Source: Escherichia phage vB_EcoM_G2285. Taken from it: DNA of 64,000 nucleotides. The position numbers and the translations under genes were made by a program. Location of the stretch: the sequence record MK327933.1, one strand, 5' to 3'. The notes beneath the pieces were generated by a model. That model saw nothing but the letters and a program-made list of their open reading frames with translations. It made no database searches and was not told where the DNA came from. This document shows, one piece after another, positions 17,474 to 21,696 of this stretch. Every line of letters begins with the position of its first letter. Position 1 is the stretch's first letter.

Positions 17474-18133
17474 TTAACCTCGATTCATAAATGCATTAAA
17501 TATTTGGTCATCAACAGAAATTTCTAATTCAACTTCAATTGCTTCAGCCTTTTCTTCAGGTGGTAATTCGTATCCACACACTACAATTTTTTCATCGATA
17601 TCAAAATATACAGAAGCAATACGATTAATGTTATTTTCAGTTAAGTCTAAATCAACATCAACATCTTTTTGACCTACACTTAAAGGATAACTAATACGGG
17701 TTATTTTATTATCTTTAACAAAGAGTCCACCAACATACTCTGTACTACGTTTGAAGTTTACACGTTTCCGAAATGAAAGATATGATGCATCTTTACCATG
17801 AGCCCTGCTCATAGGACATAATGAATAACTAGAATAAGAGATGTCAAATCCTACACCTTCAATATGAGCCAACGTGTCATGATTAAACCAATTATAATCA
17901 TATGCCAAATCCATTATATTGTAATATGTGAAAGGCACAGGATTAACATCATATGTTGTACCTTTAAAATCTGCCCAGGCAACGATTTCGTTATCTTTAA
18001 CAATTACAAAAATTACACCGAGATGGTATCCGTTATTATTTTCATTCGGCGTTATATTATAACATTGTGCATTAGGAAATTTACCATATTTAAATGGCGC
18101 ATTTTTGTGCATATAATAAATCATATTATTCAC
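17474..18133 (-). CDS. hypothetical protein
   Basis: 219 aa ORF. Confidence 0.5.
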   Translation of the reverse strand: MNNMIYYMHKNAPFKYGKFPNAQCYNITPNENNNGYHLGVIFVIVKDNEIVAWADFKGTTYDVNPVPFTYYNIMDLAYDYNWFNHDTLAHIEGVGFDISYSSYSLCPMSRAHGKDASYLSFRKRVNFKRSTEYVGGLFVKDNKITRISYPLSVGQKDVDVDLDLTENNINRIASVYFDIDEKIVVCGYELPPEEKAEAIEVELEISVDDQIFNAFMNRG

Positions 18134-18792: not shown

Positions 18793-19161
18793 TTAATTAA
18801 ATTTGTTTAAACGTTCAATACACTGGACGTAGTTATTCGCGATTTGTTTCTGGGTAGGCTCTTTACCAGTTGTTTCAACATAGCGAATGAATGCGATTTC
18901 AGTAGCCCGTAAGCAATGTTCTTTAACGCGTTGTTCTTTTGACAATGCTACAGTATCAGAGTCACGATAACGTTGAGCACGGGCATCAGCTTGAATCATT
19001 CGATTACCTACAGTAACCGGGTCTTCCACTTCAACTTTAGGTTGTTCATATTGTTTAACATTCGGATTGTAAATCAGTTGGCCAACATTATTAGGGATAA
19101 AGCCATGAGCACCACATCCGGTTAATCCAAATACCATTGCTAAAGCGATTAATTTTTTCAT
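18793..19161 (-). CDS. lipoprotein
   Basis: 122 aa; signal peptide with lipobox LTGC. Confidence 0.6.
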   Translation of the reverse strand: MKKLIALAMVFGLTGCGAHGFIPNNVGQLIYNPNVKQYEQPKVEVEDPVTVGNRMIQADARAQRYRDSDTVALSKEQRVKEHCLRATEIAFIRYVETTGKEPTQKQIANNYVQCIERLNKFN

Positions 19162-19232: not shown

Positions 19233-19421
19233 TTATCGAAAATCTGCTTCGAAAACTTTCTCGTCATTAATAAATGCTTTAACTAATGCATTGTTCACTT
19301 CAGCAAGTTGTACCGTAACCCACTCGATTTCTTCGCGATCACCTGATAACATGATATCTTTAGTGAACATCTCACCGCTTTTAAACCAACCGATAAAAGT
19401 AACTTTAGTTAATTTGCTCAT
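19233..19421 (-). CDS. dmd: Dmd antitoxin (discriminator of mRNA degradation)
   Basis: MSKLTKVTFIGWFK..MFTKDI..YAEVNNALVKAFINDEKV matches recalled T4 Dmd; start set at internal ATG. Confidence 0.82.
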   Translation of the reverse strand: MSKLTKVTFIGWFKSGEMFTKDIMLSGDREEIEWVTVQLAEVNNALVKAFINDEKVFEADFR

Positions 19422-19735
19422 ATTTCCTCGCAAAATGCCCATTCAGCATGATAAACTGTAGCGCCTTTAGTATTATTCATTTGAACTACGTCTACCGGAG
19501 AAATTACTCGATAGAGACGTGGTTCACCTCCATAAGAGCGTGCTGCTCGTCCTGCATAAATCTTTGCTAAACCGATATCTTCAGTAAAGAATACACGATC
19601 CAAGTTTTTCTTACGTCCAGTTTCAGACAGAACTCCTGTTTCTTCAGGAGGACAAAGCATGTTTTCGATGTTAGCTGAACTACTTGAACCGTGATAAAAA
19701 ATCTTAAATTCTGCTTTACAATCGATGGTTTTCAT
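19418..19735 (-). CDS. Arr-like ADP-ribosyltransferase-fold protein (candidate)
   Basis: 105 aa; FYHGSSS.. (HG[ST] motif), VFFTED, YRVISP blocks align to recalled Arr rifampin ADP-ribosyltransferase. Confidence 0.45.
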   Translation of the reverse strand: MKTIDCKAEFKIFYHGSSSSANIENMLCPPEETGVLSETGRKKNLDRVFFTEDIGLAKIYAGRAARSYGGEPRLYRVISPVDVVQMNNTKGATVYHAEWAFCEEI

Positions 19736-19761
19736 TTTGTTCTCCAGTAGTTGATAGGTCT

Positions 19762-19790
19762 ATAATAACACAACTACTGGAGAAGTAAAC
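19762..19790 (-). promoter_or_regulatory. early-type promoter embedded in 14-bp-arm palindrome (arms 19740-19753 / 19771-19784)
   Basis: minus GTTTAC-N17-TATTAT; downstream arm CAACTACTGGAGAA contains the SD. Confidence 0.55.
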
Positions 19791-20165
19791 TTAAAAATGT
19801 AATTTAGATATATCTGCGTTGATTTCGTTTTGGTTTGCGTCATATGCAATTAAACGAACCGCTTTAGATGGGTCATTCAATGCATAGAAATGATGGAACA
19901 TTGCTCGAACGATATCACCATTTACGAGTTCTACCTGGATAGGAGAACCTTTTTCGAGTTGGAAATGTTCATAAGCTTTGATGGTTCGTAGATAATCAAG
20001 TTTTTGATTTCCAGCTCCAACTATTTGTACGATACGTTTGCCTGTGTTTTCCATACGAGATACAATAGATTTAGGAGCAAGAATAACGTAGGTTGCCAGC
20101 GGAGAAACTACTTCAACAGTTGTGTTTTCGGTGATTGCAGTAAAAATTGCTTGAGACATATTCAT
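19791..20165 (-). CDS. hypothetical protein
   Basis: 124 aa ORF between gp41 and dmd, not in the T4 backbone as recalled. Confidence 0.5.
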   Translation of the reverse strand: MNMSQAIFTAITENTTVEVVSPLATYVILAPKSIVSRMENTGKRIVQIVGAGNQKLDYLRTIKAYEHFQLEKGSPIQVELVNGDIVRAMFHHFYALNDPSKAVRLIAYDANQNEINADISKLHF

Positions 20166-20194: not shown

Positions 20195-20224
20195 ATCATA
20201 TCATGCCTAGAGGAAGATGTAAAC
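20195..20224 (-). promoter_or_regulatory. early-type promoter (-35 GTTTAC, 18 bp, -10 TATGAT)
   Basis: minus GTTTAC-N18-TATGAT then CAACCAAGAGGAAAACATTATG. Confidence 0.4.
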
Positions 20225-20253: not shown

Positions 20254-21696
20254 TTAAAATTTTAACTCGTTGGCTAAGCTATCTAGGTCAGCACGTGTTG
20301 CTTTGGCTTTACCTACGCGTTCCGTACGATTCATCTCTGCCTGACGCATCTGAGCACCTGCGTTTTCATTTACTGTGTTAGGTGTGTTCATGCCTTCTTG
20401 CTCAATCTCAACCCATTTCTGGTTGCCTTTACGTACACCCATCAGGAATTTATTCCACTTATTCTTATCACCATATCGTGATTTGATTTGTTTGATAAGT
20501 TGTTGTTCAGCTTGTGCAAGTTCTTCGGTTTCAATTACGGCCAACATGAAATCTGCCGTTGCTGGTAAACCTGCTGATTCTGCAATATCACTCATGTTCA
20601 TGTCTGAAGCATCCCATGCTGCACGTCCTACTTGAGCTGCAGTCCATAGAACTGTTTCAGATTCTACTGCTAATGCACGAAGTTCTTCTGCGATAGCTTT
20701 AACTAATGTGTAGCTATTTTCAGTGTAAACTCTGATACGACAAGACCCACAAATACCTAAGTAATCAACCATGATTACAGATGGTACAAAGTTCTTCTTA
20801 AGTTTTAACTCATTAAGCAATGCACGGAATGTATTAGCGTTAGCTCCGCCAGTAGGATACTGTTTAACTACTAAACGTCCTAATGTGGATTTTGAACGCC
20901 ATTTTTCCATCTTGGCTTTATATTCAGCATAAGATACGTTACCATCATCGATATCATCGAGTGATACGTCAAGCATGTTTGCATCTATACGCTTAGCACA
21001 AACTTCTTCAGCCATTTCCATGGAAATATAAAGAACGTTATGACCTGTTTGAAGATAATCTGCAGCAAGTGAACAAAGGCCTAAAGATTTACCGACGTTA
21101 ACACCAGCCATTAAAACGTTTAGTGTACCGGTTTCTGCGCCGCCTTTGGTGATTTTATTCAAAATGTTTAATTTGAACGGGACCTTACGTGCTTTATTTA
21201 GATAAGAAAGCCAGCGTGCTTCGTAGTCTTCCATCCAGTCGTGTCCAACATAACTATCGAACGAAATTGAAAGTGCTTGACGCATAATATCAGGAATAGC
21301 TCCTACGTCAGGCATTTTCTTGTTACGTTGTTCTGGAGGTAGTTCAGCATTAGACTGAATCTCAATGATTTTGGATGTAGCATTATACATCGCTTTTTGC
21401 TGGACATATTTCTCAGTTTCTTTAACCAACCACTCATGGTCTTCAGGAGTATCAGCCAATTTTTCAATTAGGTCTGAAGTTCCTTTATATTCGGCTTCAG
21501 TTAAAGAACTGTTATCTAAAGCCACCTTTAACGCATTGATAGATGGCATTGCATTATATTCGTTAACGTGGCTCTTTATAATTTTAAAGACATTTTTTGC
21601 CGGTCCACGCTCAAAATACTCAGAATCCATATAAGGCCAGACCTTAGAAAAATAAGCCTGGTCGTATACTAGATGAGACAAAATAATTTCTACCAC
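20254..21696 (-). CDS. 41: replicative DNA helicase (DnaB-like)
   Basis: 480 aa; MVEIILSHLVYDQAYFSKVWPYMDSEYF and near-colinear with recalled T4 gp41. Confidence 0.95.
   Translation of the reverse strand: MVEIILSHLVYDQAYFSKVWPYMDSEYFERGPAKNVFKIIKSHVNEYNAMPSINALKVALDNSSLTEAEYKGTSDLIEKLADTPEDHEWLVKETEKYVQQKAMYNATSKIIEIQSNAELPPEQRNKKMPDVGAIPDIMRQALSISFDSYVGHDWMEDYEARWLSYLNKARKVPFKLNILNKITKGGAETGTLNVLMAGVNVGKSLGLCSLAADYLQTGHNVLYISMEMAEEVCAKRIDANMLDVSLDDIDDGNVSYAEYKAKMEKWRSKSTLGRLVVKQYPTGGANANTFRALLNELKLKKNFVPSVIMVDYLGICGSCRIRVYTENSYTLVKAIAEELRALAVESETVLWTAAQVGRAAWDASDMNMSDIAESAGLPATADFMLAVIETEELAQAEQQLIKQIKSRYGDKNKWNKFLMGVRKGNQKWVEIEQEGMNTPNTVNENAGAQMRQAEMNRTERVGKAKATRADLDSLANELKF

Follow-up and report, generated by a model that had tools for sequence, protein, structure and literature searches.

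The window analysed here is a 64,000-nucleotide stretch of Escherichia phage vB_EcoM_G2285 (sequence record MK327933.1). On its minus strand it carries a 105-codon open reading frame (ORF; 19418..19735, ATG start), which a first-pass annotation, made from the DNA letters and without naming a strand, had described as coding for an Arr-like protein of ADP-ribosyltransferase (ART) fold, immediately upstream of dmd. We find that the 105-residue product almost certainly has the ART fold, and that Arr, the rifampin ART, is the nearest family by sequence, so that the description 'Arr-like' appears fair at the level of homology. As to its function, our judgement inclines, by a small measure, to an immediate-early protein that would use nicotinamide adenine dinucleotide (NAD+) to transfer ADP-ribose to a conserved target, for host takeover or counter-defence and independently of Dmd.

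Fold and kinship with Arr

An AlphaFold2 model of the 105-residue protein was built from a 30-sequence alignment. The model reached a mean predicted local distance difference test (pLDDT) score of 84 and a predicted template modelling score of 0.76, and its elements follow in the order strand, short helix, strand, long helix and four strands, which in the model gives the split beta-sheet ART fold with an NAD+ pocket. Values of pLDDT below 50 occurred only at residues 38-40, within a conserved loop, and the N-terminal block of 10 residues averaged 53. Foldseek matched the model to Arr at template modelling (TM) scores of 0.63-0.64 with a probability of 1.0; KptA and other ARTs were also matched by fold. 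In a viral structure library the two best ranks were taken by a near-identical and a 74%-identical protein, and the third by a 94-residue phage protein that UniProt names after Arr-ms. Structure prediction, which the first-pass annotation had put forward as a check, thus returned neither an unrelated structure nor a search empty of ART-fold matches.

At the sequence level, a family profile run against 1.84 billion representative proteins collected 231 relatives. When 50 distant relatives were sampled, 30 matched the Pfam family PF12120 (Arr-ms), with a best E of 5.6e-9 and several scores above the 25-bit gathering score, and no other Pfam family was matched by any of the 50. Two profiles were used for further searches: a narrow one (A1), made from T4-like members, and a broad one (A2), made from the 50 sampled distant members. 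Against the Protein Data Bank (PDB), the broad profile retrieved three sequences only, all of them Arr (2HW2/9IAF at E 4e-4, Arr-2 at E 7.5e-4). The resulting alignment spans Arr residues 13-82 only. Within this span, H19-G20-T21 of Arr is paired with H15-G16-S17 of the window protein, E40-x-G-R43 with E38-x-G40-R41, I-Y49-I-T with V-F49-F-T, A57 with A57, and the V-E-P-x-G strand with residues 77-81. The three blocks on which the first-pass annotation had relied are all present in the ORF, FYHGSSS at residues 13-19, VFFTED at residues 48-53 and YRVISPVD at residues 75-82.

Residue conservation was counted in the broad alignment and over 99 relatives. In the broad alignment, H15, G16 and Y60 never vary, and conservation reaches at least 90% for E38, R41, K43, F49, T51 and A57. 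In all 99 relatives, H15 and G16 are kept and S or T occupies position 17; the H-G-[ST] motif of strand 1, which lines the nicotinamide site in the H-type clades, is therefore present. Besides H15-G16-S17, the key residues of the window protein are the loop P29-P30...E38-x-G40-R41-K42-K43-N44-L45, the strand F49-F50-T51, A57 and Y60. The loop, highly conserved in the family as L-P-P...S-E-K-G-R-K-K-N-L-D, corresponds to the Arr segment that was named D-loop in 10.1101/2025.02.20.639278. If hydroxyls are ignored, the pattern would read H-[F/Y]-x, between the arrangements of Arr and KptA, and fits an NAD pocket.

Conservation, distribution and a probable early promoter

Sequence comparison shows that the ORF is no chance reading frame but a genuine gene, strongly constrained by purifying selection. 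Its product matches PHROG 2110 (unknown function) over the full length (E 6.9e-60). Between the window and the Dhakavirus copy, 34 codons show synonymous-only differences and 12 show non-synonymous ones. Moreover, the ART protein is 88.6% identical between Mosigvirus and Dhakavirus, as against 69% for gp41, the adjoining essential helicase; this reflects either an unusually strong constraint or a recent exchange of the gene between both lineages. Mosigvirus (RB69-like) phages, JK42 and mar005P1 among them, share 98.5% identity with the window and have the ART ORF annotated as 'hypothetical protein'.

A tblastn search recovered the gene from 609 phage records, which cover many T4-like genera; most matches are 60-100% identical. 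The hosts are Escherichia (215 records), Klebsiella (116), Acinetobacter (68), Aeromonas (62), Enterobacter (29), Shigella (17), Cronobacter (14), Vibrio (14) and others. A few of the 609 records already bear the annotation 'putative ADP-ribosyl transferase'. Prediction of the ART fold is thus already known from several GenBank annotations, and a pairing of an ART with Dmd is described in PMC9503650.

A species-level scan of cellular genomes for the ART family returned five loci: two on contigs of 167 and 178 kb, two on short contigs, and one stand-alone copy next to a likely transposase ORF in a Kaiserbacteria metagenome-assembled genome. The 178-kb contig (Flagellimonas marina assembly) and the 167-kb contig (a bacterial bin) carry the ART at 63-70% identity; both have the size of a T4-like phage genome and probably are phage sequences that were binned together with bacterial ones. 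Distant stand-alone relatives lie on contigs shorter than 1 kb. Many distant relatives are domains within large proteins, of 270 to 3,900 residues, where they stand beside lambda-type portal, PhageMin_Tail (minor-tail/tape-measure), ART-PolyVal, NUDIX, 2H/Acb1-like phosphoesterase, GNAT and Toprim domains; this embedding concerns the relatives, the window protein being a stand-alone one. Such architectures have been described as virion-delivered 'polyvalent' effectors (Iyer et al. 2017 and 2022). A family that is nearly absent from cellular genomes and whose relatives are embedded in virion-delivered proteins points to an action on the host at the outset of infection.

Timing is suggested by the upstream region. 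On the minus strand, at 19762..19789, immediately ahead of the ART gene, a consensus scan found a T4-early-type sigma-70 promoter-like site, which, read from 19789 to 19762, consists of a -35 TTTACT, a 16-nucleotide spacer, a TG and a -10 TATTAT, and which may drive the ART gene. When the upstream regions of seven T4-like lineages were aligned (alignment A3: Mosigvirus, Dhakavirus, a Yersinia phage, Kanagawavirus, Slopekvirus, Tulanevirus and Lazarusvirus), a (G)TTTAC...TG-n-TAT-n-AT element was seen before the ART start in each, so that the gene appears to head an early transcription unit in all seven. Ahead of the element, two of the seven lineages have a GC-rich hairpin and then a T-run where gene 41 ends.

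Proposed activity and alternative explanations

We propose that the window ART is a minimal, single-domain protein of a phage-specific branch within the Arr family. It would be made immediately after infection, from its own early promoter and in a transcription unit shared with dmd. NAD+ would be bound in a pocket formed by H15-G16-S17, F49-T51, A57 and Y60, and ADP-ribose would be transferred to a conserved host or infection-specific target; the purpose may be host takeover or counter-defence, without any dependence on Dmd. The anti-defence or takeover role that the first-pass annotation had put forward is thus plausible. As for the acceptor, Arr modifies a small-molecule hydroxyl and KptA an RNA phosphate. 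These are the acceptors of the nearest relatives; moreover, the canonical Glu is missing, and among the relatives some carry a fused enzyme that acts on ADP-ribose-phosphate products. On these grounds, ADP-ribose seems likelier to be passed to a non-protein acceptor, either a small molecule or the phosphate end of a nucleic acid, or by substrate assistance to an acidic residue, than to Arg or Cys in the classical way. A narrower and rather unlikely version takes the mini-ART to be active on the phosphate end of a nucleic acid or on a small molecule (an immune signal or a metabolite), and not on rifamycins or protein side chains. If true, it would give the Arr family its first enzyme with a physiological substrate and would represent a new kind of immediate-early phage counter-defence, one not related to Alt, ModA or ModB.

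Several observations weigh against the proposed enzymatic activity and its early timing. By itself, the window protein matched nothing in Pfam (E<=10), NCBIfam or PADLOC, and neither phmmer nor the narrow profile A1 linked it to a PDB sequence; its homology to Arr-ms thus rests on transitivity. The profile search advised in the first-pass annotation was accordingly split in its outcome: the broad profile does find Arr in the PDB, but the window protein alone matches no curated model. The catalytic motif of Arr-ms is H-Y-D, formed by H19, Y49 and D84 (10.1101/2025.02.20.639278). Among the 99 relatives, the position of the Tyr is a Phe in 96 and a Tyr in three, and no acidic residue is conserved in the C-terminal half across the family. 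Residue 82 is D or E in 54/99 (D82 in the window protein), and at position 84, where 53/99 have E, the window protein has V. Strand 5 starts at residues 93-94 according to predicted secondary structure, not superposition; at position 93, the window protein has T, as do 52 of the relatives, while 18 have E and 14 have S. E103 is invariant only within the T4-like subfamily. Furthermore, the C-terminal ~35-40 residues of Arr have no counterpart here. The promoter is a consensus match only, and we found no literature on biochemical or genetic experiments with the ART protein.

Tested against the known ART motifs, the window protein thus has of the H-Y-D motif of Arr the His only, the alignment ending before the D84 region. 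It shows neither the strand-5 catalytic Glu of the H-Y-E type (PARP/diphtheria toxin) nor the R-S-E motifs (R ... S-T-S ... E-x-E) of T4 Alt/ModA/ModB and ARTs of the cholera-toxin type. Of the H-Y-[ED] class membership claimed in the first-pass annotation, the ART fold and the proximity to Arr stand, but the triad is absent, with a Phe for the Tyr and no conserved acid.

With these two changes, the protein could bind NAD or ADP-ribose without transfer. It might then be a catalytically inactive ART-fold protein that binds or soaks up NAD+, ADP-ribose or an immune signal derived from ADP-ribose (such as those of the Thoeris type), or else a stoichiometric inhibitor of a host protein. Such a role would agree with a pocket that keeps its NAD-contacting residues and yet has lost the Tyr hydroxyl (F49) and any conserved catalytic acid, and with a small protein that is probably made early and in quantity; the small phage sponges Tad1/Tad2 and Acb2, which act against nucleotide signals, are a precedent that counts in its favour. 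We nevertheless consider it unlikely, since ARTs without the Glu are still active, such as KptA and the human H-Y-[I/L/Y] ARTs (10.1101/2025.02.20.639278), since H-G-[ST] is retained in each of the 99 relatives, and since the same domain sits among enzymatic effector domains in the virion-delivered multidomain proteins, as fits an enzyme. The fold match to KptA raises another explanation, a KptA/Tpt1-like transfer of ADP-ribose to the terminal or 2'-phosphate of RNA, to repair RNA or cap its ends in those conflicts over RNA cleavage where Dmd, too, is active. This explanation partly overlaps with the proposed transfer to a non-protein acceptor; taken for itself it is very unlikely. The likeness to KptA is structural only: no sequence match to KptA chains was found, and the profile matches Arr, not KptA. 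KptA/Tpt1 has an N-terminal RNA-binding lobe and an R-H-R-R tetrad, both missing from the single-domain window protein; its family has Y, F or W ahead of H15, in no case an Arg. In addition, the stand-alone T4-like proteins have a near-neutral median isoelectric point of 7.3. Least credible of all is a true Arr orthologue that would ADP-ribosylate rifamycins, the only Arr-type substrates known so far (10.1101/2025.02.20.639278), and so shield the host RNA polymerase that the phage needs. Arr is indeed the sole family detected by sequence, but the window protein is missed by the Arr models, including rifampin_ARR of NCBIfam, and its relatives score ~26 bits over positions 2-70/131 of that model, versus an equivalog cut-off of 130 bits; only Arr residues 13-82 are aligned, the C-terminal third is lacking and Y49 is changed. 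Likewise, solved Arr chains (Pfam PF12120; PDB 2HW2, 9IAF, 9IBA) count 143-151 residues against 105, Asp84 of Arr has no conserved equivalent, the invariant Tyr60 stands where Arr-ms has a Gly, and Arr is a resistance gene whereas the window ART would, by its promoter-like site, be a phage early gene. Another small ART, AcrF11 (PDB 6KYF), ADP-ribosylates the type I-F Cascade; we detected no sequence similarity to it, and host range and context differ.

The last explanation concerns dmd, the next gene downstream (19233..19421, minus strand; Pfam PF17587, E 9.5e-21; PHROG 2102), whose product is an antitoxin against RnlA/LsoA. Iyer, Burroughs, Anantharaman and Aravind 2022 (Viruses 14:1977, PMC9503650) assign a p0068-family ART to the H-Y-[EDQ] clade and interpret a 'p0068-family ART + Dmd' pair, which they report for phages of Escherichia, Shigella and Salmonella, as a toxin-antitoxin system of type II. 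By its description, the pair fits the present locus, and the p0068 family would be that of the window ART. The ART would then be the toxin and Dmd its antitoxin. Besides this published contextual prediction, Dmd is cited there as a proven antitoxin for RnlA/LsoA; the order ART-dmd is kept in Mosigvirus, Dhakavirus and a Yersinia phage; and the stop of the ART gene does overlap the start of dmd, as the first-pass annotation had noted, TGA and ATG sharing ATGA. Overlaps of a few bases between stop and start are seen at several other gene junctions of the annotated loci, so the one between ART and dmd is not special. Co-expression with dmd, which the first-pass annotation had deduced from it, may well hold, as the two genes seem to lie in one tightly packed early transcription unit, but a functional link does not follow from the overlap. 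An arrangement with the toxin first and with an early promoter would agree just as well with the ordinary packing of T4 early genes.

The distributions of the two genes speak more directly. Dmd was found in 798 phage records, practically all of which belong to phages that infect Escherichia, Shigella, Yersinia, Salmonella or Citrobacter, and the genus table of these records contains no Klebsiella, Acinetobacter, Aeromonas, Enterobacter, Cronobacter or Vibrio; more than 300 ART records come from host genera that are absent from it. Among Escherichia phage records, 596 have dmd versus 215 with the ART, so that most phages with dmd would be without the ART; T4 is one of them. The ART gene of Slopekvirus, Lazarusvirus, Tulanevirus, Kanagawavirus and a Vibrio phage is followed by an unrelated small protein or by a gene on the opposite strand, the neighbours outside the range of Dmd including a 58-residue membrane-like, a 46-residue Cys-rich, an 81-residue and a 30-residue protein. 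Adjacent ART and dmd genes were seen in phages of Escherichia and its relatives only. In Tevenvirinae, the ART gene comes directly after gene 41, and then dmd where present; the adjacency is thus explained by a synteny that both genes share just downstream of gene 41. All together, the largely independent distributions argue against an obligate toxin-antitoxin pair, and we regard this reading as decidedly unlikely. Small downstream ORFs of the other genera were also considered as analogues of Dmd and rejected: they belong to different PHROGs, are unrelated in sequence and have no Pfam Dmd match.

Neighbouring genes and significance

The upstream landmark of the locus is gene 41, encoding the replicative helicase (20254..21696, minus strand; ORF and annotation of the 98.5%-identical phage JK42). 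Between it and the ART gene lies an ORF of 124 codons (19791..20165, minus strand; PHROG 10668). The first-pass annotation had stated that neither this ORF nor the 105-codon one belongs to the T4 interval. Indeed, in T4 (NC_000866) dmd comes 58 bp after gene 41, so that both are absent. The 124-codon ORF was found in 134 phage records, almost all of them Mosigvirus at >=95% identity; outside Mosigvirus, there is a 35%-identical match in a Salmonella phage and one other match below 60%. It is missing at the Dhakavirus, Yersinia-phage and Kanagawavirus loci, where the ART gene directly follows gene 41. Being restricted to Mosigvirus and absent where the ART adjoins gene 41, it was rejected as a partner of the ART. 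The ORF has an early-type promoter-like site of its own, at 20195-20223, and no informative family match.

The region between this ORF and the ART gene may also fold. On the minus strand, an RNA hairpin with a 14-bp stem is predicted at 19740..19784 (-22.1 kcal/mol, z -5.46; none of 200 shuffles folds as well). Its 3' arm holds the ART Shine-Dalgarno sequence GGAG (19745-19742) and its loop the -10 of the promoter-like site. In this model, transcripts reading through from gene 41 would mask the ribosome-binding site of the ART gene, and transcripts from the local promoter would lack the 5' arm. A hairpin-masked Shine-Dalgarno sequence combined with an internal promoter is known from some T4 genes, e and soc among them. 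Upstream of the Dhakavirus ART copy the hairpin is not conserved; it is therefore a local and not a family feature. A terminator-like site inside the ART ORF (19650-19633) was set aside as chance, one having been found against 0.8 expected.

Other genes of the neighbourhood deserve mention. In Slopekvirus VAC13 and Tulanevirus phiAS4, cross-matching proteins of PHROG 7439 and 7204 are encoded directly upstream of the ART; they count 289 residues in VAC13 (locus 1593-2462) and 252 residues in phiAS4 (1683-2441). This protein could be a conserved neighbour of the ART, and the window has no obvious equivalent. Downstream, between dmd and an imm-like gene, lies a gene for a 122-residue protein (18793-19161, minus strand) whose sequence has a signal of the lipoprotein type (MKKLIALAMVFGLTGC...); the T4 interval contains no counterpart of it, and no family match was found. 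Further downstream (17474-18133, minus strand), the homologue of gp61.2/AdfA, anti-DarT factor A, has an Arg (NINRIAS) where T4 has a His (IINHIAS). The RB69-like Arg allele of AdfA was reported to be unable to neutralise DarT1 (PMC11825919).

To the known prediction of the fold, the present analysis adds the link to Arr-ms through transitive profiles, the change of Tyr to Phe together with the missing acid, the conserved early promoter element, the occurrence of relatives within virion proteins, and the argument from distribution against a toxin-antitoxin pair. The distribution data give concrete grounds to doubt the published reading of the ART and Dmd as such a pair. The gene is spread over phages of Escherichia, Klebsiella, Acinetobacter, Aeromonas and Vibrio, including therapy phages. 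Since the protein is small and the phages are genetically tractable (RB69, and the BASEL relatives Bas46 and Bas47), its activity is readily testable. T4-like phages are the classic viral ADP-ribosylation system: Alt, ModA and ModB are likewise ARTs that act early on host targets. These enzymes belong to the R-S-E clade and are much larger, whereas the window protein has an H-type strand 1 and no sequence match to them; if active, it would be a fourth, evolutionarily separate type. Finally, a phage branch of the Arr family that has no plausible role in antibiotic resistance would offer a direct route to other substrates of Arr-type enzymes.
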